From Christensenellaceae bacterium (GTDB lineage: Bacteria > Bacillota > Clostridia > Christensenellales > Borkfalkiaceae): a DNA stretch of 64,000 bases. Below the pieces are notes generated by a model. That model did not search any database. It was not told where the DNA came from and saw only the letters and a program-made list of their open reading frames with translations. Each line of letters begins with the position of its first letter. Positions within the stretch are counted from its first letter, which is position 1. Position numbers and translations under genes: made by a program. Positions 33,204 to 62,428 of the stretch are shown one piece after another. The stretch spans positions 23,664 to 87,663 of the forward strand of contig JAZSNM010000025.1 of the NCBI GenBank assembly GCA_045536405.1. Reading direction: 5' to 3'.

Positions 33204-33755
33204 TTAAATTTCTACAATCACATCACCATTTTTATCGCGAATATTAAAACCGTCTAAACGATAATCTTTCATCCTGCTTTTATCAAAAGGTTTTTTGATT
33301 TTTGGCATTAACCGATTTTCTCCACCGCCATAGGCAATCAGTAATATCAAAAAACGACCTCGATACGCTAAAGACCGACCAAAGTCATCATCCTGATATA
33401 CGGCATAATAAACATATGAGAACAACGATTCCCCCTCCAAAGCAATATTAGGATTCGCACCATACTCTAACAACAATTGCGCAATTTTTAAGCGGTTCTC
33501 GTCAGATTCGTCCGCCATATCGGAAACCGAAAATTTAGGGTGGGGATATTGTGTATATTGCAGATTCCAAAGCACGTTTTCCCCATCGCAAATCAAATTA
33601 GGATTCGCACCATTTTTCAACAAAACTTCTACCATTTTTATATTTTCAGCTTCGATTGCCTCGCTTAAATATGTGCTTAACAAGCCAAATTTGTTAATGA
33701 ACGGCTGATTAATATCCACTTGTTTTATTCTCTTTTTTATCTCATCCAAAGTCAT
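33204..33755 (-). CDS. Ankyrin-repeat protein
   Basis: 183 aa with two clear ANK consensus segments (VEVLLKNGANPN, AQLLLEYGANPN). Confidence 0.75.
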   Translation of the reverse strand: MTLDEIKKRIKQVDINQPFINKFGLLSTYLSEAIEAENIKMVEVLLKNGANPNLICDGENVLWNLQYTQYPHPKFSVSDMADESDENRLKIAQLLLEYGANPNIALEGESLFSYVYYAVYQDDDFGRSLAYRGRFLILLIAYGGGENRLMPKIKKPFDKSRMKDYRLDGFNIRDKNGDVIVEI

Positions 33756-33862: not shown

Positions 33863-35314
33863 TCAGTCTACGTCGAGCTTTAATAAATAGTTCATAACAA
33901 ACTTGGCTTTTTCGTATATCTCGCTTATGACGTCAAAAGTTTCTTCAAACGGATTTTCGCAGTATCTACAATACCCACGTTCTCTATAATCCATTTTATC
34001 TACCAATTGCCCACACTTTTCACAATACGTGTATTTGTAAATACGTAAATTATGGTCGGAATCGTCAAAAGAATCTTCTTCTATACCCATTATCGACAAG
34101 AACTCTTCTTTTGTGATATTGGGATTTTCCATTAAAACCTGATAACTTTTCTCAAAATTATCATCGCATATCGCATCCACAAGCGTCATTAGATCACACC
34201 CTATTTCAGTTAACCGCCTGTCTATGTAATCATATTGTTCCCAAGTTATCCTCGATACGGTTTTAGGTTGTTCCCCTACGTATTCCACCCAACAATTATA
34301 GCCCCAACAATCATTTTTTACGTCTTTTACTTTACGCAAAATGCCCCTATCCATCATAATAGCAAATTGCGTTGACCAAAAATAATACGGGAAGTGATCT
34401 AGATTACGATTCTTTTCGTTTTTATAAATAAAATGAAGAAGACTTGTCAACTTAAACGGTTTATCTTTGGGACAGTTCCTTTCGATAAGTCCGAAATAAT
34501 AATCAATAGGCACGCTTCTTATTTTGTCGCCGTCCGTAATCCTAATCTTTGCATTTTCTTCTTTTAATCTATCCCAAATTTGAGCGTATTTTTCCTTCTC
34601 TTCCGCCATTATAAAATGTGGATTGCTTTGCGAAATCGCAAACCCTATTTGTTCACGATAAAGCTGAGCCCATTTCCGCAATTTATTCACAAATCTTCCG
34701 TTCGGTTTGCGAATTCTTTGGGGCAAATTTAGTAGTAAAATCGAACATTCAATATTACGAAGTAAATGCATTAAATAATATAAAGAACACAAATCTTCAT
34801 TATTATAACTACACCAAAACCGCAACGTATAACCGTCTTTTGCATAATTTACAATCTTCTCGACTAATTGAAGCTGATAATCAACAACTTCTTTCGCTTC
34901 GTGTTCTTCTGCACCCAAGTCGATTACCAATTGATTATAAACGTATGCTAATCTACCCTCGTAGAAGTTTTCATCGCAAATATCGCTAAGCGACAAATGT
35001 AAATTCATACTGCAAAACTCATTATCAAAAGAAAGCATTTTATCAACAAGTGGTGCGTCGAAATATTTGTTATCAATAAAATTCTCAAACAACGCTTTTC
35101 GTTTTTCAAGACTAAATTCTTGAACCCATTTAGCAGGAATACAGCATTCCTTCTCTACACTGCCTTTGGGTGTGGATTCTGTCATTGAAAAACATAAATC
35201 TTCATATTCCGCTTTAACTCTTTTTGCACTAACAAGATACGAGCGCAAGCCGTCCATATCCCCCACGAATACATCTATCATTTTATTTTCTTTGGCTTCA
35301 TAGTTAAGAATCAT
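33863..35314 (-). CDS. DUF1835/DUF3658-like protein with C-terminal CxxC..CxxC zinc ribbon
   Basis: 483 aa. IDVFVGDMDG, LRFWCSYNNEDLCSLYYLMHLL and IWDRLKEENAKIRI..SVPIDYY match my memory of DUF1835 + DUF3658. The C-terminus has CEKCG...CRYCENP. Confidence 0.5.
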   Translation of the reverse strand: MILNYEAKENKMIDVFVGDMDGLRSYLVSAKRVKAEYEDLCFSMTESTPKGSVEKECCIPAKWVQEFSLEKRKALFENFIDNKYFDAPLVDKMLSFDNEFCSMNLHLSLSDICDENFYEGRLAYVYNQLVIDLGAEEHEAKEVVDYQLQLVEKIVNYAKDGYTLRFWCSYNNEDLCSLYYLMHLLRNIECSILLLNLPQRIRKPNGRFVNKLRKWAQLYREQIGFAISQSNPHFIMAEEKEKYAQIWDRLKEENAKIRITDGDKIRSVPIDYYFGLIERNCPKDKPFKLTSLLHFIYKNEKNRNLDHFPYYFWSTQFAIMMDRGILRKVKDVKNDCWGYNCWVEYVGEQPKTVSRITWEQYDYIDRRLTEIGCDLMTLVDAICDDNFEKSYQVLMENPNITKEEFLSIMGIEEDSFDDSDHNLRIYKYTYCEKCGQLVDKMDYRERGYCRYCENPFEETFDVISEIYEKAKFVMNYLLKLDVD

Positions 35315-47835: not shown

Positions 47836-49611
47836 TTATATAAACACCTTTACCGTCAAATCTTGCCATTGATTTGGTCTAAGCATACCGTCTTTTTCCT
47901 TTCGATAAGACCTTGCCGATTTATAATCAATCGTAAATTCCCATACCAACTTTTTCATATCGTTTGGCACATCAATTAAGTCAAAATTCATATACCAATT
48001 AAAACACGTTTCTGTTACGGGAACAATGGTATGAACGAACTGTTTAATCACTTCTCTATCTACGTAGTGTTCGGTAAAATCCATTTTCGACAACAAGAAG
48101 TCTTCCACCTTTTTTGCAGGCTCTTCTTCCCCGTCTTCGTTTGGAACCATCCCCGCATCAAGAATACGCCTTTTGTTTATAAGTTCGATTTTCTCTTGCT
48201 CAATTTCCTTTTTGAGTTCTAAGTAAGATTCTTTCGGGATTTCGTCTTCCAAGCGCATACGAGTTAAGCGTTTTAGTTTTTCGTCTAATTTTGCTATCTC
48301 TTTATCAACCGTTGCCTTAATTTCCGCCGCTTTTTGATATTCTTGAAACACACCGATTTGATATAAAGACGACACGTTATTTAGAATATCTTTCTTGTTA
48401 CCCCATAACCCTGCAAAAATATGCCTTGCCATCATTTCTAATTTCCAATCGCATATTTCTCTAAGATTACAACTTTTTGAATCGTCAATCCCTGCTTCAA
48501 TTCTAATATCCTTAGAACCATAGTTAAGTTGGTTATAGCATTTATATCCATAGATGACTTCGCCGTTTTTATTCTTGCGCCACTTGTTTTTGCGCATTTT
48601 ATAACCGCATCTACATTTTAATTTCTTCGTCCAAACGTCGCTACTTTCGTGAATGCCCGTTTTGTGAAGAACTTCCCCGTTTTCCGTACGGAATTTACTA
48701 TACCTTGTACGTTGCTCTCTTATCTGCTTGCATCTATCCCATTGTTCTTCGGATATAATCGGCTCAAAATCGCCTTTTACGTAAAGATAGGTATCTTCGT
48801 CACGGTTTATAATAATTTTTTGGTCAAGGAAATTATTTCTTCGTGATTTTAAGTACGCAGGATAGCCTTTATAGGTTGAGTTATGTAGTACTCGTGATAC
48901 TTTCGCGTTCTCCCATCTAACTAACCCCGAACTATCTTTTCTTTTACGTCGTATCATCTCGTCACGAATTTGAGATATTCCTTTACCCGCCGAATACATA
49001 TCGTAAATCATACGCACCGTTTCGGCTTGTTCTTCGTTGATTACGTAAGTTCCTTTTGCCTTGTCCCTATCATAACCAAGAATATTACCACTTCCATACA
49101 AAACGCCCTTGTCTCTACTGATTTTTTGCCCCGCGCGCACACGCTCTGAAATTTTTCTGCTTTCTTCTTGCGCAAGCGTTGCCATAATCGTGAGTCTAAG
49201 TTCGCCGTCTCCGTCCATCGTCCAAATATTATCTTCTACGAAATAGACTTCAATGCCGTACTCTTTCAATTCTCTCGTAACTACGAGCGTATCAACCGTG
49301 TTTCTTGCAAATCTACACACTTCTCTCGTTACGATTAAATCAAACTTCTTTTGTTTAGCGTCTTGTATCATCCTTAAAAATGCAGGTCGCTTTTTCGCTT
49401 GCGTTCCCGTAATCCCTTCGTCGATATATTTTTTAATAACATACCAATTAGGATTTCTATCCGCCACGTCGTCGTACCATTGCATTTGATTTTCTAAAGC
49501 CGATAACTGCGCTTCGTGTTCTGTGCTAACTCGTCCGTAGAAAACCACTCTTCTTTGCCTTGCCCTGTTAAAATTAACGTTAGTGGGCATTACCATTCCG
49601 TTTTCAATCAA
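47836..49611 (-). CDS. Large serine recombinase
   Basis: 591 aa. The resolvase-type N-terminus is VVFYGRVSTEHEAQLSALENQ ... DEGITGT ... VTREVCRFARN. A recombinase domain, a Cys-rich zinc ribbon (CRCGYKM..YKCYN) and a coiled coil follow. Confidence 0.9.
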   Translation of the reverse strand: MIENGMVMPTNVNFNRARQRRVVFYGRVSTEHEAQLSALENQMQWYDDVADRNPNWYVIKKYIDEGITGTQAKKRPAFLRMIQDAKQKKFDLIVTREVCRFARNTVDTLVVTRELKEYGIEVYFVEDNIWTMDGDGELRLTIMATLAQEESRKISERVRAGQKISRDKGVLYGSGNILGYDRDKAKGTYVINEEQAETVRMIYDMYSAGKGISQIRDEMIRRKRKDSSGLVRWENAKVSRVLHNSTYKGYPAYLKSRRNNFLDQKIIINRDEDTYLYVKGDFEPIISEEQWDRCKQIREQRTRYSKFRTENGEVLHKTGIHESSDVWTKKLKCRCGYKMRKNKWRKNKNGEVIYGYKCYNQLNYGSKDIRIEAGIDDSKSCNLREICDWKLEMMARHIFAGLWGNKKDILNNVSSLYQIGVFQEYQKAAEIKATVDKEIAKLDEKLKRLTRMRLEDEIPKESYLELKKEIEQEKIELINKRRILDAGMVPNEDGEEEPAKKVEDFLLSKMDFTEHYVDREVIKQFVHTIVPVTETCFNWYMNFDLIDVPNDMKKLVWEFTIDYKSARSYRKEKDGMLRPNQWQDLTVKVFI

Positions 49612-49883
49612 GTTAAATCGCCTCCTTTGAATAATTTATTTTGCTTTACTACACTTTCCCCAAACTGAGTACGCTTCTTTTCAATTTTAGCGTATTCTCG
49701 CTCGTCAATCATTTCGTTATCACGCATAATCTCTAACATCTTAAACGCGATAATCTTATTTAACACCTCCATATTTATTTTTGACTTGTCGATTTTCTCC
49801 ACGTTTTGGGTTTTGTAGCAACCTTGATTTTCCACTTCATTATTTAATTTTTCTTCTCTTAAATTTAATTCCTTATAATTCAA
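49608..49883 (-). CDS. Hypothetical small protein upstream of the recombinase (4-nt overlap)
   Basis: 91-aa ORF translationally coupled to the recombinase gene. Confidence 0.5.
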   Translation of the reverse strand: MNYKELNLREEKLNNEVENQGCYKTQNVEKIDKSKINMEVLNKIIAFKMLEIMRDNEMIDEREYAKIEKKRTQFGESVVKQNKLFKGGDLT

Positions 49884-50020
49884 TTCTCCTTATTTTTTAT
49901 TTTATAGGGTGATATCCGCACTTTTAACGGAAAGATAAGTACGAATGCCCTATGCAATCATTTTTCTCCTTATTAATTCCCGACATTACGGGTGTGTTAA
50001 GCACATAATGTGTTCCGCTG

Positions 50021-50239
50021 TTATTTGCTTTCTTCAAATTCTTTTCGCAAGGTTTGATATCCTAATCTAATCAAATCTACTTTTGAAATTCTTTTTTGTT
50101 TTAAGAAAGCCATTATTTCATCGTGCTCTTTAACGGGAAGTCTCGTGTTAAATTGCCTTGTTGCTTGTTCACGCTCTTCCTTGTGCACGATTTCATACTT
50201 AATTCTTGCCTTTTGTTTTGGCGTTAATTGTTTTTCCAT
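50021..50239 (-). CDS. Hypothetical small basic protein
   Basis: 72-aa ORF with RBS GGAGAA. Confidence 0.5.
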   Translation of the reverse strand: MEKQLTPKQKARIKYEIVHKEEREQATRQFNTRLPVKEHDEIMAFLKQKRISKVDLIRLGYQTLRKEFEESK

Positions 50240-50251
50240 TGTATTTTCTCC

Positions 50252-50614
50252 TTAAATATAAACGATTTCGCTTAAAATCTCTTCTTCAATCACTTGTTTC
50301 ATAGCATTAATTCTTTTAATGTCTTCCAAGTAATTACCCGTAGGGCGATACTGTTCGTTTTTAGAAAGTTTGTCCCACATAGTATCATACAAATCTTCTG
50401 CGGCTTTATCTACTCCGTGCAAGTATTCGGGCAAATGCCCTGCTAAACTTAACAATTTACCGAAGTTATGCTCTTCAATATACTGTTTCGCAAGCGTTCC
50501 ATACTTGCCGTAAACGTGCTTTTTAGGTTTAACTGCTTGTTGATAGATTTTAATTTCTTCCACAGTTAACTCTTCGTTTGCTTCCGCCTTTTTAATGATT
50601 TCTTCTACGTTCAT
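50252..50614 (-). CDS. tnpV: TnpV-like protein
   Basis: The start is set at the ATG at 50612-50614 (MNVEEI) after GGAGGG. GKYGTLAKQYIEEHNFGKLLSLAGHLPEYLHGVD fits the TnpV pattern I recall. Confidence 0.55.
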   Translation of the reverse strand: MNVEEIIKKAEANEELTVEEIKIYQQAVKPKKHVYGKYGTLAKQYIEEHNFGKLLSLAGHLPEYLHGVDKAAEDLYDTMWDKLSKNEQYRPTGNYLEDIKRINAMKQVIEEEILSEIVYI

Positions 50615-50703
50615 AAAACCCTCCCTAAAATTTATTGTAGCAATATTATACCGTGATATCACGAGATAGTCAAGCTGTTTTATATTCTTTTGAGAAAATA
50701 GTT

Positions 50704-51249
50704 TTATCTTAATAGTAAAAGTGTCATTGCGATGCTTTGCGCAAATAGTAGTATAGGCGTAGCCCAAAACATAAACTTTCTAAAACCGCCTTCCACTTGC
50801 ATTTCTTCGCGCTGTTTTTGAATTTCTTTTGCAGTTGTTTTGAGTTCTTCCTTAATCTCTTTCACACTTTCATCCACCGCTTTTTTAGCGTAGGCTTGCA
50901 CGTCATTTACTGAACGAGTAATCTCGTTTTTTATGGTTTGACTTATTTCCGTTTTGAACTGACGTTCCTCCCTCGCTACTTCCCGAAACTCGTCCACCGT
51001 TGCCGTTACTAATCGAGTCATTCTTCTCATCTCGTATTCGTTGTTCTCTTTTAGCGATTTCACTTCGTCCGTCAAGCCCTTGACGAGCGTATTCTGATTC
51101 TTGATTAAGCCGTTGCAGTTCACGCTCGATTTCGCCAATGCTTCTCGAAGTAGTTGGTTGTCCGTCATATCCTTGTACGCATCCGTACGTTTCTCTAATT
51201 CCGACAACGGAGTTGCTTGTTCCCCCGTATCTATTCTTGTTAATGCCAT
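50704..51249 (-). CDS. Coiled-coil protein with C-terminal TM anchor (overlaps the relaxase 3' end in another frame)
   Basis: 181-aa ORF of protein-like composition ending in FMFWATPILLFAQSIAMTLLLL. Its real start may be an internal Met. Confidence 0.45.
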   Translation of the reverse strand: MALTRIDTGEQATPLSELEKRTDAYKDMTDNQLLREALAKSSVNCNGLIKNQNTLVKGLTDEVKSLKENNEYEMRRMTRLVTATVDEFREVAREERQFKTEISQTIKNEITRSVNDVQAYAKKAVDESVKEIKEELKTTAKEIQKQREEMQVEGGFRKFMFWATPILLFAQSIAMTLLLLR

Positions 51250-51973
51250 TTATTATCTCCTTTTTAGTATAATTTTCTCCGAGTTTAGCCCCACGGATAG
51301 GCTTTTTCTTTTTAGGGTGTAAATATGAATATTCAGTTTTCGTTCTACTAAGCGTTACGCCGTAAAGGGAAAGATGCGAAATAAACTCTTCTTCAGATAA
51401 AGCCGTTTGCTTGGCTTCTTCGATAACTTCGCGCAGTTCTTCCTTCCAACTCGTTCCACCTTTAAGAATAATGTGTTGTTCTTCGGCTGTACGGTTGTTC
51501 TTTGCTTTCTTGCGGAAGTCTATCTCTGAAAAGCCCATTTCTTTGCCCAATCGGTTAGCTTCGTCTTTCATATCTGTATAATCTTTTCTTGTTATGCGCA
51601 GTTTTTTGCCCGTAACGGGATGAACGGCGTTTACGACGATATGACTATGTACCGTGTCCGTATCCGTATGCGTAGCAATCACGCACTCGCAATCGCAGAA
51701 AAGTATAGCGGTTAATTCTTCGGCGTAAATATGCGCTTCTTGTGGTGAAACTTTATCTTTTCTATCACAAGATAATTTGAAATGATAATATTTACGCTCT
51801 TCAAACTTTTCGCCTTTACCAAACCGTTTTGCCGTTTGCTCAAACTGCTCGGCATAATCTTCGTCTTCAAACAAGTTTCTTACCGATACAAATTCTGCCT
51901 TGTTTTTATCCGTGACGTAAGCCATAACTTTTTGTGGCGTACTTTTGCTTGACTGACATTTAAGAAGTGGCAT
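50903..51973 (-). CDS. MobA/VirD2-family relaxase
   Basis: 356 aa with the His-triad motif HTDTDTVHSHIVVNAV and the N-terminal Tyr context VMAYVTDK. Confidence 0.8.
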   Translation of the reverse strand: MPLLKCQSSKSTPQKVMAYVTDKNKAEFVSVRNLFEDEDYAEQFEQTAKRFGKGEKFEERKYYHFKLSCDRKDKVSPQEAHIYAEELTAILFCDCECVIATHTDTDTVHSHIVVNAVHPVTGKKLRITRKDYTDMKDEANRLGKEMGFSEIDFRKKAKNNRTAEEQHIILKGGTSWKEELREVIEEAKQTALSEEEFISHLSLYGVTLSRTKTEYSYLHPKKKKPIRGAKLGENYTKKEIINGINKNRYGGTSNSVVGIRETYGCVQGYDGQPTTSRSIGEIERELQRLNQESEYARQGLDGRSEIAKREQRIRDEKNDSISNGNGGRVSGSSEGGTSVQNGNKSNHKKRDYSFSK

Positions 51974-52248
51974 TATCCACCTCCAAGCATATCCGAAAGT
52001 TTCTTATACAAAGACTTACACTCTTTGATAGCGCTGAGTAATTCGTCTTGCGTTGCTCTACCAAAATAATTATTTTTTACTACTTGGTTAAGATTGTTTC
52101 CTTGCCGTTTAAGTTCGGCTAAAATCTCGTTGCCGTTGTCGATATAAATAATAGGCTTGTCCGCAAGCGCGCGTATGAGATAATCCGTTTTACTTTGTCC
52201 GCTTAATTTAATTTTTCTTTCAATCGTTTCCTTTTCCGTTTCCGACAC
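51973..52248 (-). CDS. mobC: MobC-type relaxosome accessory protein
   Basis: 91 aa with the GNNLNQVVKN motif characteristic of MobC. It overlaps the relaxase start by 1 nt. Confidence 0.75.
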   Translation of the reverse strand: MSETEKETIERKIKLSGQSKTDYLIRALADKPIIYIDNGNEILAELKRQGNNLNQVVKNNYFGRATQDELLSAIKECKSLYKKLSDMLGGG

Positions 52249-52375
52249 CCTAAACGAATAGGAATAAGGACGATTTCGTTTAGCCTTTTTCTTCTTAATT
52301 TCTTCTATAATGTTTTCCTCCTACTTTGTTTTTTTGCCAACGTAAAGGGGCTTGGGGGGAAGAACTTCCACCAAC

Positions 52376-52420
52376 GAGGCGAGCGTTTCGCTCGGTAAGT
52401 GGCGTGCCACTTGCGTACCT
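52376..52420 (+). promoter_or_regulatory. oriT candidate (hairpin + MOBQ-like nick motif)
   Basis: CGAGCG-ttt-CGCTCG (52380-52394) is followed immediately by GTAAGTGGCGTGCC. This compares with the RSF1010 nick region GGTAAGTGCGCCCT, from memory. It lies about 130 nt upstream of mobC. Confidence 0.45.
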
Positions 52421-52780
52421 CGCTATCCGATAAGCGAATATACCTCTCCCATAAATTTAAAAGTCGTAAGCCCGACGACGGCTTGCAGTTTTTACGACCA
52501 CGCCGAAGTTTTAAGTCTATCGGCAAGACTGAAATTTGTGCATTTTAATCACCTCCTTATCTTTTATTTATCAAGCGGCAAAAACGCCGAAAATATTCCA
52601 AAGAATTTTTATCCCCCATATATCCAAGGACACGAAAATTTATTTTGCAACCCTTTTTACGAAAAAACTTTAAAAAAGGGGACAAAAAAGTCGTTGATAA
52701 AACTATCACCGACTTTAACCGTGTTTAGGTAATACCTCTATGATGGTCAATCATTCTATTTAATTAGCGCATCACTTAAT

Positions 52781-53389
52781 TTATTTTTTCTTCCTCTTTT
52801 TCCTTTTTTTCTTTGCGAAACTTTTTAATTCTTTATTGATTGCTTCTGCTTTCTCGTCAACGTATTCGCTTGCGTTGTAAAATTCTTCGGGGTCTTCAAA
52901 AACCGACGTGCAACCGTTTCGGCGCGCACGAGCGTTTAGTTCAGGTATCATTCCATCACAACCAAAAGCGCACTCGTAATTAAAGAATAGGTCATCACGT
53001 TCTATACGCCAATACCCTTCCCAACGGAAGTCACGAAGCTTTAATGGGTTGTCCTCCGCGCAAACGTTTTCTATTTGCAGTTCCTTACCCGTGAGCCGAG
53101 ACTTATCCCCTATGTAAACGATACGGTTAGCCTTTTGCTTGCCGTTTTCGTCATACGTAGCTTCACGGCGGATTACGTTTTCCGTCTCCAATTCTTTCAA
53201 TAGCTTTTGCATTGAACGAGTAGAAACGTTAAAAGCGTTTGCGATAGTCTCTAACTTCATTTCACGCCCACTACGCCGACGTAAATAGTTTTTGAGAACT
53301 TCCTTACGCTTTTTACCCGTAAGTTTCCGCATCTGAAGGGAGCCGTTTTCATCAAGAAAATAGAAGTATCCGTAACCTTTTTTCGCCAT
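52781..53389 (-). CDS. HTH DNA-binding protein (winged-helix-like), basic C-terminal tail
   Basis: The start is set at the ATG at 53387-53389 (MAKKGYGYFYF) after GGAAGGGG. It has the HTH ANAFNVSTRSMQKLLKELETENVI and a KKKRKKRKKK tail. Confidence 0.6.
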   Translation of the reverse strand: MAKKGYGYFYFLDENGSLQMRKLTGKKRKEVLKNYLRRRSGREMKLETIANAFNVSTRSMQKLLKELETENVIRREATYDENGKQKANRIVYIGDKSRLTGKELQIENVCAEDNPLKLRDFRWEGYWRIERDDLFFNYECAFGCDGMIPELNARARRNGCTSVFEDPEEFYNASEYVDEKAEAINKELKSFAKKKRKKRKKK

Positions 53390-53561
53390 TTTCCCCTTCC
53401 AACTATAACAAAATTTCACCCTATGCTTAAAACTCCCTTTTGAATGATTATAAGCCAATTGCTACCACATAAGGTAATAAAATGTAGAAAATCAATAGAT
53501 TTTAGTACCAAAAAAATCTTAAAATTTTTTAAAAATAGGTTGTCCACCCTATTTCGCTTAA

Positions 53562-53690
53562 CCGCGAGATTGCAAATCTACTGTTCGATTATATTATACC
53601 ACACTAAATATGACAACCTACGTCATATATTATATAAAATTTCGCTAACAATGGCAACGGTCAAATGTCCACGTTTAAGTACATCTGACC
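53562..53690 (+). repeat. Repeat copy B (hairpin + promoter-operator module)
   Basis: 129 nt with 7 mismatches to 33050-33178, in the same orientation. Confidence 0.85.
53593..53628 (-). promoter_or_regulatory. Promoter-operator module upstream of the 52781..53389 HTH gene
   Basis: The minus strand reads ATATGACgtaggttGTCATAT (53608-53628), then 9 nt, then TGGTATAAT. A leader of about 200 nt separates it from the ATG. Confidence 0.55.
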
Positions 53691-53767: not shown

Positions 53768-54763
53768 TTATTTAAGTGTCAACAATTTAATAAAATTCAA
53801 AAAATTAGGATGAACAGCTGAAATAATCCACATTGCTATACCAATTACCAGCAAACCTATCCCAATAGAACCAAATGTAATGAAAGGCTTAATTGAAGTT
53901 TTAGTTCCAATTATTCTTTCTATTAAATAAAATATAACAGCTATTAAGGATAACAAAATGCCATTAATACATAACAATAAAACAATATTAAATGAATTTA
54001 CCAAAATACTAAGATTTACTATAAATAAAGGCACAATAGTAACTATTAAGGATACAATTGTAATAATACTATTTCTGTTTTCTTTTATTGTTTTTTCATT
54101 TTCCTTTATCAATACATCATTCTTTTGTATTGCGATTTCATTTTCTTTCGTTAATGCTTCTATTTTCCTTTTACTCTCTTCTAATTCTTTAGAAAGAACC
54201 TCTTCTTTTTCAGTAATATACGTTATTTTTTTAGTTAAAATATGTTCAATATTCGTTTCTTGATAATTAATAAAACTAACAAACGCAGGCTTATCGTTTT
54301 CAATTAGGTCGACAATTAACTCTATAAAATTTATAGTTTCAACGGTTGACGGAAGAACATAGTGCATAGAGCGATCCAAAACTAAATTATATTGAAATGC
54401 TTCTTCGGGATAAATTCTAATTATATTATTTAAAAATAATACAACCAACGCTTTATAAAAAACAAACTGATCGTTTGAAAATTTTCTTAATGCCTCTTTT
54501 TTAATGTTTTTAAAGTTTTCTACATATAAAAAAGATTCTCTAGGGATAACTGCGGTCATCGGGGGTAATTTTGCCCCATTAGAAAAGGATAAAAATACAA
54601 TTTCATCTAAAACTTCTCTATCAACAATTTGTTCATTGTTTAAAAACCTAATAATCTCCGATGACAGCTTGTATCCTATAGTATTGCTGTCAAAATTCTC
54701 AGCAAGACATATCAGACCTTTAAGTTCAATGTTTTTAATTTCTTCTTCGGTAAATGTTCTCAT
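53768..54763 (-). CDS. Soluble N-domain + coiled coil + 3-4 TM C-terminal protein (candidate membrane effector)
   Basis: 331 aa. The coiled coil is EVLSKELEESKRKIEALTKENEIAIQKNDVLIKENEKTIKEN. Hydrophobic segments then run to the C-terminus. It has its own TGATATAAT promoter at 54788-54796. Confidence 0.6.
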   Translation of the reverse strand: MRTFTEEEIKNIELKGLICLAENFDSNTIGYKLSSEIIRFLNNEQIVDREVLDEIVFLSFSNGAKLPPMTAVIPRESFLYVENFKNIKKEALRKFSNDQFVFYKALVVLFLNNIIRIYPEEAFQYNLVLDRSMHYVLPSTVETINFIELIVDLIENDKPAFVSFINYQETNIEHILTKKITYITEKEEVLSKELEESKRKIEALTKENEIAIQKNDVLIKENEKTIKENRNSIITIVSLIVTIVPLFIVNLSILVNSFNIVLLLCINGILLSLIAVIFYLIERIIGTKTSIKPFITFGSIGIGLLVIGIAMWIISAVHPNFLNFIKLLTLK

Positions 54764-54787
54764 AAGTTTCTCCTTTGTTTTTCTTGG

Positions 54788-54796
54788 ATTATATCA
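54788..54796 (-). promoter_or_regulatory. Extended -10 (TGATATAAT) for 53768..54763
   Basis: Plus-strand ATTATATCA lies 25 nt upstream of the ATG region. RBS AAAGGAGAAAC follows. Confidence 0.5.
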
Positions 54797-54836
54797 CGAA
54801 GTTGTTAAACCTAATATGGACAGACGCCAATTGTCC

Positions 54837-54865
54837 ACGTTTAGGTACATCTGACCGCTTTTGTA
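54837..54865 (-). terminator. Conserved post-stop hairpin module (copy C)
   Basis: ACGTTTAGGTACATCTGACCGCTTTTGTA matches 33159-33187 with one mismatch. It lies immediately after the stop of 54866..55882. Confidence 0.45.
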
Positions 54866-55882
54866 CTAAAATCTTACAGGTATATTAGATTTATGGATGA
54901 ATTTAGAATAATCTTCCACGTTAAACTCACAATATTTTAAGAAATCTTGTAAACTTTGTTCTGCTAAATCTATTTGTGTAGTAGGAGAAATTGTTAAAGA
55001 TTTTATAGCATTGTGAGAAAATTTTAATTCTAAATAAGGTATTAGAATCCCATTACTTATCCTATATTTATAAATTTCTTTATCTTTTAATTCTTTTAAT
55101 TTTGATTTAGGAACTGTTACAACAATTCTTAATTCCTTTTCTGGAGCAAAACAATCCCTTTTTATAAAACACAAATAATTGCCCGATGTATCTTTTTTAA
55201 ATTTACACTCATCTCCATCAAATTTATAAACGGGAATATCTATATCTTTTTTATCACGAGACATCTTATTAATCTCATTTTCCCACTTCTTTAATTCTAA
55301 TGCCTCATTAGAATAAATTTTTGCTGCAGAATAAAATAATTTCATTGTAGCCAACTGAAAGTTTGAGATTAATTCATTTGAAAACGCTTCACTATATTCA
55401 GATTTGTCGTCTTGACAATATTCAACAACACCAAATGACAATTCGCAACCATCCAAACACTCGTTTCCTTTCAATATGCTTTCAACTAAAAGTTTATCGT
55501 TGAATTCAATATTATATCCTTGATTATTGATTTCTTTTGTATAATAATTCCACATCGGAAGAGAATCTTGGTCTAAAGAAAAACAACATACAAAAGTTTG
55601 GTCCTCAATATTGCGTAAAGATTTTTCTATTTTCATAAACTCTCCTTCTGGCGAGTCTATTAGTTTGGCAAGTGTTGTTAATCCCGCTTTTATTTCATCC
55701 TTATCGTTTAGATAACCGATATTAGTAAACCTTAATGTGGAGTTCTCCAATATCGATTTTAAACCCAATATTGATGTATAATGAAAGATTTGCTTATCCT
55801 TAGTGCCTTGATTGAATTTAATTTTTTGTTTTGTCAACCTTTCATAGTTGATTGCCCGTTTATTAAAATTGAGTTCCGCCAT
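54866..55882 (-). CDS. DUF2971-like protein
   Basis: 338 aa. IFHYTSILGLKSILENSTLRFTNIGYLNDKDE, FVCCFSLDQDSLPMWNYYT..GYNIEF and FAPEKELRIVV fit my memory of the DUF2971 signature. Confidence 0.55.
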   Translation of the reverse strand: MAELNFNKRAINYERLTKQKIKFNQGTKDKQIFHYTSILGLKSILENSTLRFTNIGYLNDKDEIKAGLTTLAKLIDSPEGEFMKIEKSLRNIEDQTFVCCFSLDQDSLPMWNYYTKEINNQGYNIEFNDKLLVESILKGNECLDGCELSFGVVEYCQDDKSEYSEAFSNELISNFQLATMKLFYSAAKIYSNEALELKKWENEINKMSRDKKDIDIPVYKFDGDECKFKKDTSGNYLCFIKRDCFAPEKELRIVVTVPKSKLKELKDKEIYKYRISNGILIPYLELKFSHNAIKSLTISPTTQIDLAEQSLQDFLKYCEFNVEDYSKFIHKSNIPVRF

Positions 55883-55952: not shown

Positions 55953-58511
55953 TTAATCGTTCTTATTCTTAAAAGCCTCTAACAGTTGTGCTTCTATCTC
56001 AGACCTAAAACCATTAAAATAAGTTCCGTCCAACAGCTTCTTTTCAAAATCAGGATATGACGATGGCGACAATATATTAAAATGATATTGAATATCTTTG
56101 CCTTGATTTTCCAACTCTTTGTTAAGAAGTGCAAAATGCTTCATTGCATCAATATACTTCGAATAATTCTCCTTCGAGATATCCCTGTCAGCTTTTGTTT
56201 CTACCACAACTATATGTTTGCCTATTTTCAAGAAGAAATCAGGATTAAAATCTTTAGGACTACTTCCACGTTTCAATATATATGATATTTTATAAAAACC
56301 TACATCTCTTGATTTTATCCAAGAATCAATGATTGCCGACATATTATCTTTTATAATCATTTCAACAAACTTTGTTTCAGGTTCGCGATTAGTAAAAACT
56401 AAACTTAACGGCGTTTTAAAATTGTACACATTACATTGCTTAAATTGCTTGCGTGGAAATTCATCCATAAAATGCTCAAAAACCTCAACTTCTTCATCAA
56501 GCAATTCATTTTTATAGTCATTACTATAATATACAACAATACCATTTTTTAAAGATGAAAACCTTATTGATGATTTATCAAGTTTTATCGTAGATATTTC
56601 TTCAGGAGATTTTACTTTGTTTTCAAAACCTGCTGAAGTGCGCTTTTTACGCAGCAATCCCGTGAATTTACCATTGATTTTTTCAATATTGACCGCAGTT
56701 AACCTATTACCGTTAATATTGGCTTCTTTCATTGATTTTTTGATAAAATCAACTATTTCTTGATATGTCGGCAATTTATCCATTTCGGTTTCGCCGTTAT
56801 TAAAAATCAACTCATTAGACAAATTTCGAATACGCGCTTCGTTTTTTCTACTACGATATTGATTTATTATAGCCGTAGCCACTTCTTCAACTGTTTTTGT
56901 TTCTTTTAAAATTTCATATTCTATATCTTCTGTTCTATTTTTGGCATCTAAATATGTAACAGAACGTGAAATTTTTTCTTCTTGGGTAACAAGTGTCAAT
57001 GGCTTGCTTATATCAAAAGTTTCTGTTTTGTCATAGTTTTCATTAAACTTTTGCGTTTCTACTTTATCATAGTCTAATTTGTGTAAAGTAAAATTATGGT
57101 TTGCGCGGTCTCCTTCTAAGATTACACGACTTGGAAGTATTGCTTCATTTTCCAATACCTCGTCTACAATTTTTCTAATATTCTTACCCCAAGAAGAGTG
57201 ATTAAATACTCTTACCGAAGGCTGCATTTTAAGAGATTCTGGAATTCGTAACCCTCTTCCCAAGACCTGAGAAATTAGAAGTTTTGAATTAAACGCTCTA
57301 TCTTCCCAGGGCACAATTTGAAACACGTTTTTGACGTCCCAACCTTCAGTTAGCATAGAGACAGAAATAATCCACTCTACACGATTATCTTTTTCATCAA
57401 CAGTTTGTAGTATTGGAATATTATTTTTATGGTCCTTATGAGAGGTCACAATTAAAACCTCTCTTTCAATTTCGGACCTGTCTCTATTAGTAAATGATGT
57501 TAAGAAATCTACAAAATCCTCTTCAAGATTCTTGGCAGACTGAATATCTGCGGTTACGATTATAGAAATCGGTTTTATCGAGGTGTATTTATTTTTATTT
57601 TTTATGTGATTTTGATAAATCTTTTGAAACTTTTCATTATCGTTTTCACTAACATCTTCATCAACATAATTAATATTTTTCACAATACGGTCGTCAATTG
57701 CTTGTCTTAAAGAATATCTATAAATTACATCGTTAAAATATGTATCTCCTTTATACGCTGTACCCGTGAATCCTATATGATATTTAAAGCCATAATCAAA
57801 ACTAGTGACAAACGCTTTCCATTTCTTTATATCTGAATCGCTCGAGCCGTTATAAGCATGGTGAACCTCATCGCTTAAAACAAGAGTATCCTCACCCGTA
57901 TTTTCAAAACTGTCTTTTATTGAAGAGCCTGTATTACTATAAACAGCATGAATATTTTCAATACAAATATCTCCATTTGTAATGGTTTGATTTGCTTTTG
58001 TCAATTGAAACGCGCACGGCATATACTTATCTGGAACAGCACTAAGCAAATCTTCTCTACATAAAAGATTTTGAAACTTTTTATTTAGTTCCGATTCAAT
58101 TGTTAAAGATGGGCATAAAATTAAAGTGCGTTTAACTTTTGCTATAGCCATCATAATAAAACAAATACCAAATATAACGTAACTTTTTCCTGTTCCTGTC
58201 GCTAAATCTATAGTAGCCGATAAAATATTGGGTATCTGTAAATCTTTTAAATATTGCGATAATGAAGAATATATAGTCTTAATATCTTCATTCTTTTCAT
58301 AGTTTTCCGCAACTAAATTATTTATCATGTCATATTCGCCAGAAGCTAAAAACACTAACGCTGTTTTTATTGCTTCTTTTTGATATTCACGGTCACCACA
58401 TAAAATATCCAAAAAATCCTGCCATTCCTCTAAGTTTAAGGCTACATGATTATAATTTGAACTAACTTTTAAAACCAAGTTTTTTATATCAGTTTTAATT
58501 ATCCCTTCCAT
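55953..58511 (-). CDS. res: Type III restriction enzyme Res subunit (SF2 helicase + PD-(D/E)xK nuclease)
   Basis: 852 aa with DLATGTGKS (motif I), SDEVHHAY (motif II), FTGTA, MLTEGWDVKNV and QVLGRGLR (motif VI). The C-terminal nuclease-like segment is DFNPDFF...VVVETKA. Confidence 0.85.
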   Translation of the reverse strand: MEGIIKTDIKNLVLKVSSNYNHVALNLEEWQDFLDILCGDREYQKEAIKTALVFLASGEYDMINNLVAENYEKNEDIKTIYSSLSQYLKDLQIPNILSATIDLATGTGKSYVIFGICFIMMAIAKVKRTLILCPSLTIESELNKKFQNLLCREDLLSAVPDKYMPCAFQLTKANQTITNGDICIENIHAVYSNTGSSIKDSFENTGEDTLVLSDEVHHAYNGSSDSDIKKWKAFVTSFDYGFKYHIGFTGTAYKGDTYFNDVIYRYSLRQAIDDRIVKNINYVDEDVSENDNEKFQKIYQNHIKNKNKYTSIKPISIIVTADIQSAKNLEEDFVDFLTSFTNRDRSEIEREVLIVTSHKDHKNNIPILQTVDEKDNRVEWIISVSMLTEGWDVKNVFQIVPWEDRAFNSKLLISQVLGRGLRIPESLKMQPSVRVFNHSSWGKNIRKIVDEVLENEAILPSRVILEGDRANHNFTLHKLDYDKVETQKFNENYDKTETFDISKPLTLVTQEEKISRSVTYLDAKNRTEDIEYEILKETKTVEEVATAIINQYRSRKNEARIRNLSNELIFNNGETEMDKLPTYQEIVDFIKKSMKEANINGNRLTAVNIEKINGKFTGLLRKKRTSAGFENKVKSPEEISTIKLDKSSIRFSSLKNGIVVYYSNDYKNELLDEEVEVFEHFMDEFPRKQFKQCNVYNFKTPLSLVFTNREPETKFVEMIIKDNMSAIIDSWIKSRDVGFYKISYILKRGSSPKDFNPDFFLKIGKHIVVVETKADRDISKENYSKYIDAMKHFALLNKELENQGKDIQYHFNILSPSSYPDFEKKLLDGTYFNGFRSEIEAQLLEAFKNKND

Positions 58512-60512
58512 TTATTTTATCTCCAAAACTTCCTTAAATTCGTTACCAAAAATGTCTACGTATATTAATTTCATTTTATTAGTCAAACATTTAGTTGAAT
58601 CAATTTCGATAACATATCCTTTATCTGTTTCAATTTCATCCGCAAAATAAACTTCTTGCATAATAAAATTCTCGTTAGAACTTGTGTCTAGTAAAACCAT
58701 TGCTAAAATTTTCTCAATTGGATTATTATCTTTGTCAAGTTGCATATACGGTGATGTAACACTACTTATTTCAATTTTAACTTTATTTTTTTGAATACTA
58801 AGCTTAGACTTTACTTCAGGCATTTCATTAAAGTAAAAACCTACTGAATTTTCTATAGAGTTAATATTTTCTTTCTTATTGGGTTGTTGTAGCTTTTTAA
58901 ATTTTAATTTGTGCAATTCGGCAATTACTTGGTAGGGAATTCTAAGCAAATAATATTTTACGTCTCCTACTTTATAATAATCTCCTATAATATCCACGTT
59001 CATTTCTGGTGCAATTAAATAAAAACGTTTTCCAATACGACCACCAAATTGCGCATGCAACTCCTCAATATAACTTTCATCAATTGCCGTATTGTTTTCA
59101 AAATCCTGAAATGTAAAGACTTTTACCCAATCTCCACGACGTTTACCGTCAATCTTGATACCATTTATCTTTGTTTCTTGCCTATCAATATGGAACAAAT
59201 CTAAAACAAAATTATAGTATTTATCTCTTTCTAAATTAAATACTGTTTCTAAATTATAACACCCTGCATTAACAAGACAAAAAGAAGCTGGTTTATGAAG
59301 TGTTAATAATCTTTTTTGTATAGTGTAAATAGACAGCTTTCCCAAATCACAACCTATCCACCTTCTTTGCATTTTCTCAGATGCTATCAAAGTAGTTCCG
59401 CTTCCCGCAAAAAAGTCCATAACTATATCGTCTTTATCAGTAGTCATTTCAATAATTCTCTGGAGCAACGATAATGGCTTTTGCGTTGGATAACCACAGA
59501 TTTCCTTATTGCTACCTTGCAAGTTTGGACAATCCACCCAAAGATTGTTAGCTAATTTCCCCGAATTTTCTCTTTCATTCCAATATGCTTTTTCCTGAAG
59601 AGATTTTCCGTTCATCCACAATCTATTATCAAGTTCTAATGCTTTTAATTTTTCATATACCATTCTCCAACCCTTTTTGGGCGCTTTCCATTTTTTACCT
59701 GTCTCGTCAACATACTCATATTTAGTTCCAACCGTAGGTCCATCCGTTTTTTGCAATGGATACAACCTATATTTACCTCTACCGTCATTATCATCATATT
59801 TGTACATCTTTAGCGTTTTGTCTGACAAGGCTGTATACACATTTCTGAACTTATATCTATCCGTTTTGGTATACCAACATATAAATTGTGTATCTTTAGA
59901 TAAATTTTTGGTCAAAGTTTTTCCAGAACTAGAACTTTGCCAAACAATCTCGTTCCTAAAATTATTTTCGCCGAATATTTCATCCATAACGATTTTGATA
60001 TAATGATACTTTTTCATATCTAGGTGTACAAAAATGCTACCATCATCGGCTAATAATTCTTTTGCCAACATAAGACGTTCTCTTATAAATTCAATGAATT
60101 CCGCACCCTTAATCTTATCACTATACGCTTTTTCTCCGTCTTTAGCAGAAAAATCTCCCTCTGTTGCAAATGGAGGGTCTATATAAATAAGTTTAACCTT
60201 CCCTTTTACTTTATCCTTAATTAAAGGGTCTTTATTCTCATAAATGGTTTTAAGCGCTTGAAAATTATCGCCACAAATAAGTAAATTGTGCCAATCTTCA
60301 GTAGCGCTACAATTAAATTCTTTTTCTATTTGAAAAGGAACAGCTTGAGGCTCGTTTCCAATAGAAAGTATTTCTTGTTTTGACTTTTTCTCTTTGTAAG
60401 TTAAAGAATACTCCTTATGGTCTATAGGAAATAAAACTTCTTGATAAGAAGAAGGAAGCGGTTTACCACTTTGTAAAATATTAACAATTGTATCTATAGT
60501 ATTTTTATCCAT
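58512..60512 (-). CDS. mod: Type III R-M Mod subunit (beta-class N6A/N4C DNA methyltransferase)
   Basis: 666 aa. LIYIDPPF (motif IV) precedes FFAGSGTT (motif I). The stop abuts the res start. Confidence 0.85.
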   Translation of the reverse strand: MDKNTIDTIVNILQSGKPLPSSYQEVLFPIDHKEYSLTYKEKKSKQEILSIGNEPQAVPFQIEKEFNCSATEDWHNLLICGDNFQALKTIYENKDPLIKDKVKGKVKLIYIDPPFATEGDFSAKDGEKAYSDKIKGAEFIEFIRERLMLAKELLADDGSIFVHLDMKKYHYIKIVMDEIFGENNFRNEIVWQSSSSGKTLTKNLSKDTQFICWYTKTDRYKFRNVYTALSDKTLKMYKYDDNDGRGKYRLYPLQKTDGPTVGTKYEYVDETGKKWKAPKKGWRMVYEKLKALELDNRLWMNGKSLQEKAYWNERENSGKLANNLWVDCPNLQGSNKEICGYPTQKPLSLLQRIIEMTTDKDDIVMDFFAGSGTTLIASEKMQRRWIGCDLGKLSIYTIQKRLLTLHKPASFCLVNAGCYNLETVFNLERDKYYNFVLDLFHIDRQETKINGIKIDGKRRGDWVKVFTFQDFENNTAIDESYIEELHAQFGGRIGKRFYLIAPEMNVDIIGDYYKVGDVKYYLLRIPYQVIAELHKLKFKKLQQPNKKENINSIENSVGFYFNEMPEVKSKLSIQKNKVKIEISSVTSPYMQLDKDNNPIEKILAMVLLDTSSNENFIMQEVYFADEIETDKGYVIEIDSTKCLTNKMKLIYVDIFGNEFKEVLEIK

Positions 60513-60534: not shown

Positions 60535-60570
60535 ATTATATCATACTAAATATGACAATTTCCGTCATAT
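60535..60570 (-). promoter_or_regulatory. Promoter-operator module upstream of mod
   Basis: The minus strand reads ATATGACggaaattGTCATAT (60550-60570), then 9 nt, then TGATATAAT. RBS TGGAG and the ATG at 60512 follow. Confidence 0.6.
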
Positions 60571-61509
60571 TTAATTATTTTCTTTTGTTCTCCAAAGTGC
60601 GGCGGGGTGATGTTTTATATTCGCTACAATTTCTTCGTTATCGAATAATAATTCGGGAGCATAGGTTTTCTCTTTTAATTTACTTAAAAACTCTTTCTCT
60701 CCGTCCGTTAAAACAAGTAAATCTTTTACGTACGCCAGAACTTTTTCTTTTGCCTTTTCAATGTCAAACTTATCGTCTTTGGATATAACGGGTTTTAATT
60801 GAGTTTTATATTTTCTATAATCTAATCTTTCCACGTTTTTATAATCTAATGTTTGAATATCATAATCCCCGCCGATAGCGTTATAAAATACAAGACATTT
60901 TCTTAAAAGTTCAGTATCCGTTATAACGTTATTTTCTATCATAGCGTTAACGTCGTATAAATCTCTTGGCGTAGCACGTGATAAAAGTGCGTTGATTTTA
61001 CTAGCGTAGAGTTCAGTAGTATTTAAGGTTAAAACTTCAAAATCTTCTACTATACCTTTCGTTAAAATTTTCTTCTTTTCAAGCGGTAACACGTGGCATC
61101 TATCCAAGAAGTTAATTTCAACCTTTATATTGTCACGATTGCCTGCGTTATTAATGTAATTAAATAAGAACGACGTTAAAGCGAAATGGTCACGGGAATC
61201 TGCAAGCGAATAGCCTTCTTGCCACATATAGTCGGTTAAGCGCTTTTTAAACTTCTCTTTAATTTCGGGCAATTCTTCCCTATCGACGTTTACGGTAAAA
61301 TCCAAATCGATATCAACAGAAAGGCGTGGAAGTTCTACCGCAGTTAGATTTATAGCCGTACCGCCTTTAAGAGCAAGTTTATCCTTAAAGACAATGTCGC
61401 TATTTAAGAATTTTAATATTTCAGAAAGACGTAAAACTTTTTCCAAAGTATCTTTTATAAAGTTAGATTCTTGGGCAAGTCTTGTCAAGTATTGTCTTGA
61501 AAATTCCAT
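60571..61509 (-). CDS. abiEii: AbiEii/AbiGii-family nucleotidyltransferase toxin
   Basis: 312 aa with LALKGGTAINL and SVDIDLDF motifs. Confidence 0.8.
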   Translation of the reverse strand: MEFSRQYLTRLAQESNFIKDTLEKVLRLSEILKFLNSDIVFKDKLALKGGTAINLTAVELPRLSVDIDLDFTVNVDREELPEIKEKFKKRLTDYMWQEGYSLADSRDHFALTSFLFNYINNAGNRDNIKVEINFLDRCHVLPLEKKKILTKGIVEDFEVLTLNTTELYASKINALLSRATPRDLYDVNAMIENNVITDTELLRKCLVFYNAIGGDYDIQTLDYKNVERLDYRKYKTQLKPVISKDDKFDIEKAKEKVLAYVKDLLVLTDGEKEFLSKLKEKTYAPELLFDNEEIVANIKHHPAALWRTKENN

Positions 61510-62246
61510 TAATATCCCCCGTTTAGACGAGATTTAAGATTTTTAGGAGCCATAAGTTTCCACTTAGAATTAAATTCTATCTCTTTATACTCGTTTTGTA
61601 AAAAATATTTTATCTGATTGGTTAGTTTGCTTTTACACTCTTCAAAGAACGAATCGGGCAGCATAAATTTGTCTTGAAAATGTTCTAACACGTAGCCTGC
61701 TTTTTGATATAGAAATACCGAATCATATACTTTTAACGTTTCAAGTAGTTTTGTTTCGTCTAAAACACGAATTTGGTCAAGCGCATTTAAGATTTCATCA
61801 ATTCCACCACCTGCATCAATATCGTCAAGGCAGTCAACAACTGTTCGTTCAAGAGACGTTACACGAACTGCAGCAGTTATTATATTCATAATTTGAACGT
61901 CGTGTTTTAAAGGTTTACGAACATAGTCGATATCATCAAAAGTAAAATCGTTGAATCGTTTTTTACTACCAACCGTTACGGTATTAAAAACTTGATTAGC
62001 CACGCCAAAATATTCAAAAGCAGAATGATAGCACACGAAAGCATCTTCAGCGATTTTTGTAGCAAGTTCAAACTTTGTAGTAAGCGGATATCCCGACACG
62101 TCAACGTGAACGTATAACCCGTTGCGAACTTTAACAATTTTTTTAGAACGAACCTGCCCCGCTATCCAATTTTCGTATTGTTTATCATTTATAAAATTGC
62201 CTATTACGTCCTTTTTTGTAAACGTATAAGGGATAAATTTTACCAT
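61509..62246 (-). CDS. abiEi: AbiEi-family antitoxin/transcriptional regulator
   Basis: 245 aa. The N-terminal wHTH context is KIVKVRNGLYVHVD. It overlaps the abiEii start by 1 nt. Confidence 0.7.
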   Translation of the reverse strand: MVKFIPYTFTKKDVIGNFINDKQYENWIAGQVRSKKIVKVRNGLYVHVDVSGYPLTTKFELATKIAEDAFVCYHSAFEYFGVANQVFNTVTVGSKKRFNDFTFDDIDYVRKPLKHDVQIMNIITAAVRVTSLERTVVDCLDDIDAGGGIDEILNALDQIRVLDETKLLETLKVYDSVFLYQKAGYVLEHFQDKFMLPDSFFEECKSKLTNQIKYFLQNEYKEIEFNSKWKLMAPKNLKSRLNGGY

Positions 62247-62284
62247 TTATATATCCTCAAAACTAATTTTAACCATTTTAACAT

Positions 62285-62326
62285 AAAACACTACAAAAGT
62301 CAAGTGGTTTGTGTAGATTTGGTTAA
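62285..62326 (-). promoter_or_regulatory. abiE promoter region (repeat R1)
   Basis: The minus strand has TTGACT, a 17-nt spacer, then TAAAAT. The 42-nt block is similar to R2 at 62429-62470. Confidence 0.5.
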
Positions 62327-62428
62327 TATTTAGTAATACTGTACCTGATTTGCATAATTTCCGTAGAAAAAACGACGTTTTTAAAGCATTTTAGGTATAA
62401 AAAATATTGGTTTTAACTGTTTTTACGC

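Follow-up and report, generated by a model that had tools for sequence, protein, structure and literature searches.

A DUF2971 protein and an orphan membrane protein, adjacent in a Christensenellaceae defence island, are probably independent single-gene cassettes

DarT ADP-ribosylates single-stranded DNA and blocks phage replication. The PDC systems of PADLOC are predictions, among them the single-gene phage-defence candidate PDC-S31. Small modules of several transmembrane (TM) helices, thought to disrupt the membrane, are found in PycTM and in the 2TM/4TM effectors of CBASS. Among DUF2971 proteins (Pfam PF11185), Aristaios, a protein of 316 amino acids (aa) encoded by the Lactococcus plasmid pUCCL641_199, is a single-gene anti-phage system resembling abortive infection (Abi) (PMC11381338), and it interferes with phage transcription (PMC13064643). 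A 2025 survey placed DUF2971 in the H-Y-E clade of ADP-ribosyltransferases, near DarT and AbiGi, with a conserved tyrosine, an ExE motif and large helical inserts as its traits; some members, including Legionella proteins, are predicted secreted effectors (PMC12522546). Here we compare with these systems two adjacent genes, one coding for a DUF2971 protein and one for an orphan membrane protein, in a defence island of a Christensenellaceae bacterium. They lie in a stretch of 64,000 nucleotides (nt) of contig JAZSNM010000025.1, hereafter the window. The original prediction, made from the letters of this DNA, had read them as a sensor and a membrane-disrupting effector, forming a candidate new anti-phage system or an accessory to the R-M.

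We consider it rather probable that the two genes are instead independent single-gene cassettes, stacked with type III restriction-modification (R-M) genes and AbiE in the cargo of a mobilizable element, the 338-aa product being a DUF2971 ADP-ribosyltransferase that acts alone, and the 331-aa product a separate unit. Three lines of evidence lead to this reading. First, the genomic contexts of both families were fetched, and every locus was searched for both proteins. None of the 87 DUF2971 loci carried a relative of the membrane protein, and none of the 16 membrane-protein loci carried a DUF2971 gene. Close relatives of the window DUF2971 protein account for 52 of the 87 loci, and 34 of these have at least 1.2 kb of downstream sequence. 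Co-occurrence had been set in advance as a test of the sensor and effector pair, and the predicted pair did not survive it. Second, orthologues of the membrane protein with 92% identity have other genes upstream: a DUF2513 gene in locus L012, and a putative type II R-M system (two Dam-like methyltransferases and an HNH nuclease) in locus L016. Third, the same junction module stands at each of these boundaries, in the window, in L012 and in L016, behind different genes. In addition, contig L099, 99.5% identical to the window, keeps res and the DUF2971 gene and ends exactly inside this module, as would an assembly that stops at a repeat or at a variable junction.

The module has a core of about 45 nt, ACAAAAGCGGTCAGATGTACYTAAACGTGGACATTTGAC, with three copies in the window: after the DUF2971 gene, after the membrane-protein gene and at 33.15 kb (Table 1). 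In most copies the core GGTCAGATGTACYTAAACGTGGACA is preceded by ACAAAAGC, and the copies mark boundaries of different cargo genes in three related elements. The original prediction had each of the two genes delimited by a hairpin/promoter module. A module does follow both stop codons, none lies between res and the DUF2971 gene, and of the copies flanking the pair only the one at 53.67 kb has a well-formed hairpin. Since the strong 13-bp hairpin is kept in only two copies overall, the left half seems to be conserved as sequence. We rejected the module as a classical intrinsic terminator: it was missed by a consensus scan, and a T-run is present only in the 33.15 kb copy. A search for the core pattern in viral contigs found none. 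Because the module lies upstream of the operon coding for a helix-turn-helix (HTH) protein, MobC and a relaxase, an origin-of-transfer (oriT)-like or recombination site is a reasonable guess.

The hairpin is also part of a direct repeat of 129 nt (33050-33178 and 53562-53690, 94.6% identical), which comprises in addition a TTGTCA-17-TATAAT promoter. Between the two copies of this repeat, which are 20.5 kb apart, lie the relaxase, the serine recombinase and genes of sugar metabolism. Next to the 33 kb copy is a patch of low GC content with genes for an ankyrin-repeat protein (33204..33755) and a DUF1835/DUF3658 protein (33863..35314).

Transcription signals separate the two genes as well. An extended -10 promoter-like sequence, TGATATAAT, precedes the membrane-protein gene, followed by its ribosome-binding site AAGGAG at 54770-54775, and L012 carries TGGTATAAT at the matching place. 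A consensus promoter scan, which needs a -35 match, made no call at 54788-54796. As read from the sequence, both genes have strong ribosome-binding sites. In the 70-nt gap between res and the DUF2971 gene, we found no module, hairpin or convincing promoter. As the module and the extended -10 precede the membrane-protein gene and no such elements stand between res and the DUF2971 gene, mod, res and the DUF2971 gene are likely to form one transcript, and the membrane-protein gene a separate unit.

The 338-aa protein is a predicted ADP-ribosyltransferase that resembles DarT, is of the H-Y-E type and carries an ExE motif. Its motifs had led to its assignment to DUF2971, and rightly so: the profile search gave PF11185 above the cut-off. 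Membership is further backed by homologues with precomputed PF11185 assignments, and by full-length tblastn matches to genes annotated 'DUF2971 domain-containing protein'. The motifs then quoted, FHYTS...LNDKDE, CCFS...LPMWNYY and EKELRIV, are all present, on columns invariant across 39 homologues. In this 39-member alignment, the invariant residues are H34, Y35, N59, D60, C99, C100, Y113, Y114, K241, E248, E250 and R252. They form an H...Y...ExE pattern (H34, Y113/Y114, E248-K-E250), in agreement with the description of DUF2971 in the survey (PMC12522546). An AlphaFold2 model was built from the same alignment (mean predicted local distance difference test, pLDDT, 84; predicted template-modelling score, pTM, 0.84). 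It has H34 and E250 on core strands, and long helical inserts at residues 162-209. The motif of the H-Y-E clade is found in place, with H34 in strand 31-36, then Y113/Y114, and E248-K-E250 at the start of strand 250-258.

When this model was compared with the PDB by Foldseek, six of the seven top matches were DarT or DarTG (7omv, 7omw, 7omy, 7omx, 7omu and 7yk3). The remaining one was tRNA 2'-phosphotransferase, which we take to share the ADP-ribosyltransferase fold. For 7omv, 7omw and 7omy, E ranged from 0.011 to 0.026 and the match probability from 0.84 to 0.93, scores that are weak in a ranking that is consistent. A sequence-profile search of PDB sequences with the same protein gave no match. 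DarT, of the H-Y-E type and the source of the best structural matches (7omv, 7omw, 7omy, 7yk3), is a plausible analogue for the mechanism of the DUF2971 protein. The two differ in that sequence identity is about 10%, and the window protein exceeds DarT by about 130 aa and has large helical inserts. Unlike in DarTG, no DarG gene is adjacent: the neighbours are res and the membrane-protein gene, and neither product has a macrodomain match in Pfam.

Other profile collections gave a match to PHROG 1762 (E 1e-21) and, in PADLOC, partial matches to four PDC-S31 profiles, the best being PDLC04993 (E 1e-11); NCBIfam gave no match for either of the two proteins. The DUF2971 half of the locus is therefore already covered, by a family named in PADLOC as PDC-S31 and by a validated member, Aristaios, so that its predicted novelty falls (PMC11381338). 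For the same reason it is wrong to count the DUF2971 gene among island genes lacking a known system, as had been done for both genes. With Aristaios the window protein shares PF11185, a similar size, a predicted ADP-ribosyltransferase fold, a position as lone gene on a mobile element among defence genes, and a Bacillota host (PMC11381338, PMC13064643). By analogy, it is probably a single-gene abortive-infection toxin of the Aristaios or PDC-S31 kind. It differs from Aristaios in belonging to a subfamily known from sequences alone, of at least 182 homologous clusters at about 50% mutual identity (most are 48-60% identical and 338-349 aa long), and in being probably co-transcribed with type III R-M genes.

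We then consider the neighbourhoods of DUF2971 relatives. Close relatives are found as solitary genes in defence islands of various kinds, and no partner accompanies them constantly. Their neighbours include BrxL (L047), HsdR and GmrSD (L052), a DEDDh exonuclease resembling PDC-S48 (L056), a type IV restriction enzyme with phospholipase D-like (PLD) and helicase parts (L065), DUF1016/PDC-S02 (L034) and a TIR protein (L100). Two partner candidates were rejected. A 123-aa gene recurrent upstream of gut DUF2971 genes is unrelated to the 123-aa DUF2513 gene of L012. L058 and L070 each have a gene for a large membrane protein 3' of the DUF2971 gene, and these two proteins show no relationship with one another or with the window membrane protein; by eye, the one of L070 resembles the BlaR1/M56 type.

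Among distant members, a DUF2971 gene with 27% identity (L079 2511-10643) is packed between a gene for a DrmD-like SNF2 helicase on one side and type III-like mod and res genes on the other, the gaps measuring 6 and 14 nt. An ADP-ribosyltransferase may be embedded here in a DISARM-like or R-M operon. On a Clostridium beijerinckii plasmid (NZ_CP107023.1, L101 6938-9364), two DUF2971 paralogues lie within 2.5 kb, with hypothetical genes around and ssb a few kb away. DUF2971 proteins are thus not confined to recognisable defence islands. A few members are phage-encoded (PHROG 1762).

The 331-aa membrane protein is a very rare orphan and a candidate defence protein. Hydropathy and an AlphaFold2 model (pLDDT 80) agree on its architecture. 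The N-terminal alpha/beta domain of about 165-170 aa is cytoplasmic and has no signal peptide. It is followed by a single long helix (residues 169-256 in the model), whose first 60 residues or so (about 170-230) form a highly charged coiled coil. There are three hydrophobic helices (about 232-255, 259-285 and 296-318), then a short amphipathic C-terminal tail. Charge distribution and hydropathy fit an N-in topology. The layout first proposed, a soluble domain, a coiled coil and C-terminal TM helices, is thus retained with corrected dimensions: the N-domain has about 165-170 rather than 190 aa, the coiled coil about 60 rather than 45 aa, and the TM helices number three rather than three or four.

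No significant match to the membrane protein was found in Pfam, NCBIfam, PADLOC or PHROG; the weak ones to DUF2207_C and LeoBC (E 0.012 and 0.03) we attribute to TM or coiled-coil bias. Against PDB sequences, a profile search returned coiled-coil noise only, and every Foldseek match of the model in PDB and BFVD had E above 0.7. Its family comprises 11 homologous clusters in an index of 5.8 billion proteins. An exhaustive profile search of 1.84 billion representative proteins gave 24 matches, of which 3-4 are full length and the others share the coiled-coil and TM part only. The remote relatives belong to no Pfam or PADLOC family beyond coiled-coil bias matches (JetC, LmuB, LeoBC). No member of the family was found in 72,556 plasmid records, phage collections or IMG/VR.

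We next turn to the genes next to membrane-protein relatives. In L001-4 and L008-10, the homologue is immediately downstream of AbiLi-AbiLii-PycC-PycTM. It lies beside an SpbK-like TIR protein gene in L007, ahead of a type I methyltransferase gene in L097, and after IetA-like ATPase, PDC-S01 and R-M genes in L016; in L005, L011 and L015, where contexts are short or uninformative, no recognised defence gene was seen. In the two metagenomic locus types L001 (4854-8987) and L008 (118-8050), only 17-20 nt separate the homologue from the complete AbiLi-AbiLii and Pycsar array located 5' of it. In L008, a second AbiL-like pair and PD-T7-3 come after, and the orphan gene is the sole unassigned member of this dense island. 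In L016 (2870-9837), from a metagenome-assembled genome of Candidatus Scatosoma sp. (JAZRBK010000420.1), the array consists of an IetA-like AAA ATPase, a 201-aa HExxH protein, a PDC-S01 (DUF4143-type) ATPase, two Dam-like methyltransferases and an HNH nuclease; the methyltransferases were read by eye, and the HNH nuclease is supported separately. This, too, is a stacked defence island, and it gives a hint of the lineage that hosts the window. Relatives of each family thus adjoin defence genes in other genomes, as the original prediction had expected, and each family is separately associated with such genes. This is guilt by association in small numbers, and suggestive.

With PycTM and the CBASS 2TM/4TM effectors, the membrane protein shares a small multi-TM module thought to disrupt the membrane, and its relatives stand directly downstream of PycC-PycTM in two locus types. 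It differs from both in having its own N-domain of 165 aa and a coiled coil, and it has no sequence or profile similarity to PycTM or to the PADLOC 'Effector' models. We also looked at the membrane protein as a third Pycsar component. This was rejected: most contexts of the membrane-protein gene have no cyclase at all (the window, L007, L011, L012, L015, L016 and L097), and in L001 and L008 PycTM is a separate gene.

The features of the locus are collected in Table 1. The coordinates and strands first given for the two genes are correct, as is their setting in a defence island, the res, mod, AbiEii and AbiEi neighbours having been confirmed with Pfam and PADLOC. The low GC content reported for the pair, about 25%, was also borne out, at 26.4% and 28.3% against 35% for the window. 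Because genes for a serine recombinase, a relaxase, a MobC-like protein and an HTH/replication-like protein are present at 47836-53458(-), the island is the cargo of an integrative mobilizable element. A megablast search of the 52.7-62.3 kb region against plasmids gave no match. An Rfam scan of 50-64 kb gave nothing but a sub-threshold match to mir-722 at 62266-62331(+), upstream of AbiEi (33.5 bits for a gathering cut-off of 81, E 0.002). This match, which adjoins a promoter-like site at 62275-62303(-), is most likely a local hairpin and not a microRNA, and was taken as chance.

Table 1. Features of the locus. Positions are those of the window unless a locus is named.
Feature	Position	Strand	Evidence or remark
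Large serine recombinase (Resolvase + Recombinase domains)	47836..49611	-	downstream side
MobA/VirD2 relaxase	50903..51973	-	downstream side
MobC-like gene	within 47836-53458	-	downstream of membrane-protein gene
HTH/replication-initiator-like gene	52781..53458	-	downstream of membrane-protein gene
Orphan membrane-protein gene	53768..54763	-	331 aa; open reading frame list
DUF2971 gene	54866..55882	-	338 aa; open reading frame list, Pfam PF11185
Type III R-M genes	55953..60512	-	directly upstream of DUF2971 gene
Type III res	55953..58511	-	Pfam ResIII, PADLOC REase_III
Type III mod	58512..60512	-	Pfam N6_N4_Mtase, PADLOC MTase_III
AbiEii	60571..61509	-	upstream of mod
AbiEi	61509..62246	-	upstream of AbiEii
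Junction module, core GGTCAGATGTACCTAAACGTGGACA	54811..54856	-	directly after DUF2971 stop codon; hairpin right arm decayed; folding z -1.3
Junction module copy	53645..53690	-	after membrane-protein stop codon; well-formed 13-bp hairpin; RNA fold -20.5 kcal/mol, z -3.5
Junction module copy	33154-33178	-	T-run in this copy only
Junction module copies	L012 528-561; L016 9854-9887		upstream of membrane-protein gene
Extended -10 promoter-like TGATATAAT	54788..54796	-	25 nt upstream of membrane-protein start codon; sequence reading
Promoter-like repeat TTGTCA-17-TATAAT, TGG before	53593..53633	-	faces HTH/replication-like gene 52781..53458 and MobC-like/relaxase genes
Second copy of promoter-like repeat	60535-60575		upstream of mod

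How might the two proteins work? Enzymatic activity, trigger, target and any phenotype are inferred in what follows. By analogy with Aristaios, the DUF2971 protein would act alone as an abortive-infection toxin, kept inactive perhaps by the helical inserts that the model places at residues 162-209. After a phage cue, the enzyme might use NAD+ to ADP-ribosylate nucleic acid or a component of the transcription or replication machinery, and this modification would halt phage gene expression. Its gene would probably be transcribed with mod and res and yet not be functionally tied to them. As to the membrane protein, architecture and neighbourhood suggest that the cytoplasmic N-domain would sense infection, and that the coiled coil would drive oligomerisation of the three-helix membrane module. 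This module could then depolarise or permeabilise the membrane, in an abortive infection, or block DNA entry; a non-immune role is quite possible. A more novel reading, which we hold to be less likely than not, is that the membrane protein founds an undescribed, very rare family of autonomous, single-gene, membrane-acting anti-phage or Abi proteins. It would be carried as a portable cassette bounded by the module of about 45 nt, possibly an oriT-like or recombination site enabling swaps of defence cargo between elements.

Several points weigh against independent defence cassettes. DUF2971 is a large and heterogeneous family, and the Pfam match of the window protein is marginal (23.9 bits for a gathering cut-off of 22, E 1.1e-4, profile positions 1-89 of 89). 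The match to PDLC04993 is partial, covering residues 18-160 and profile positions 3-134 (132 of 245), so that the coverage rules of PADLOC may not call the protein. The best Foldseek match, 7omv, is weak, with E 0.011, probability 0.93, and template-modelling scores of 0.31 on the query and 0.46 on the target. The likeness to Aristaios lies in family and predicted fold rather than in direct alignment, and the relationship is probably remote, as the organisms that the plasmid tblastn output names include no Lactococcus. One close relative stands amid sugar-metabolism genes (L013), and distant members are found on plasmids, among hypothetical genes or near ssb. As for the counts, the loci of close DUF2971 relatives collapse to about six distinct contexts, 31-35 human-gut loci being a single one, and many loci are short metagenomic contigs. 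Finally, the defence reading of the membrane protein draws on about six of some ten small and partly related neighbourhoods, with no homology or fold behind any mechanism.

Of the alternatives, the one that survives best concerns the membrane protein, which could be non-immune: a housekeeping or accessory protein of the mobile element (entry exclusion, maintenance or other cargo) whose defence neighbours are incidental. We hold this to be fairly unlikely, and slightly less likely than a new defence family. The protein has no homology to defence families and no fold match, its gene adjoins the mobilization module in the window, L005, L011 and L015 show no recognised defence gene, and the family is so tiny that neighbourhood evidence is anecdotal. 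On the other hand, in L001-4 and L008-10 the gene is part of a chromosomal island of defence genes (AbiL, Pycsar, PD-T7-3) that lacks conjugation genes, it follows R-M or TIR genes in four other contexts, and absence from the 72,556 plasmid records and from phage collections argues against a general maintenance role in plasmids or phages.

Less probable still, and unlikely in our view, is that the DUF2971 protein is an accessory of the type III R-M operon, e.g. a back-up toxin firing when restriction is inhibited. The empty 70-nt gap and the promoter repeat upstream of mod point to one mod-res-DUF2971 transcript, the linkage with res is kept in L099, and L079 offers a distant gene in comparable company. 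However, among close relatives (at least 41% identity), only the near-identical L099 adjoins mod or res, the others having BREX, type I or IV, TIR, DEDDh or non-defence genes as neighbours. Moreover, the genes of L079 are ordered differently and its paralogue is very distant, and R-M genes are the commonest defence neighbours anyway.

It is very improbable that the DUF2971 enzyme is an offensive tool of the mobile element, i.e. an anti-defence or inter-bacterial effector ADP-ribosyltransferase. The predicted Legionella effectors of the family (PMC12522546), the distant members on plasmids, with one cluster near ssb, and the few phage-encoded ones would fit such a role. Yet the window protein has no signal peptide or secretion-associated neighbour, its close relatives are in defence islands and not in plasmid leading regions, and the only tested DUF2971 member is a defence gene (PMC11381338). 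The least credible alternative is one two-gene system, with the soluble protein, as enzyme or sensor, signalling to an effector that disrupts the membrane. In its favour, the two genes are neighbours on one strand, separated by 102 nt and similarly low in GC, and such a layout is common, as with PycC-PycTM in L001 and L008. However, the lack of co-occurrence in 87 and 16 loci largely refutes it, and against it stand also the other upstream partners of the 92%-identical genes, the module copy and extended -10 promoter-like sequence between the two genes, the break of the 99.5%-identical L099 exactly at this module, and the fact that Aristaios works as a single gene (PMC11381338).

With independent cassettes as the favoured reading, the DUF2971 gene is an ordinary find, and the orphan membrane protein is of modest interest. 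Splitting the pair keeps a false two-gene system out of defence catalogues. The DUF2971 gene adds a well-conserved subfamily from Clostridia and gut metagenomes to the lone ADP-ribosyltransferases of the Aristaios and PDC-S31 kind, and its invariant H/Y/ExE residues are ready mutational targets. The membrane protein, with no known homology and recurrent beside R-M, Pycsar, AbiL and TIR genes, is a cheap candidate for a new single-gene defence. Finally, the repeated junction module hints at an exchange of defence cargo on small mobilizable elements.

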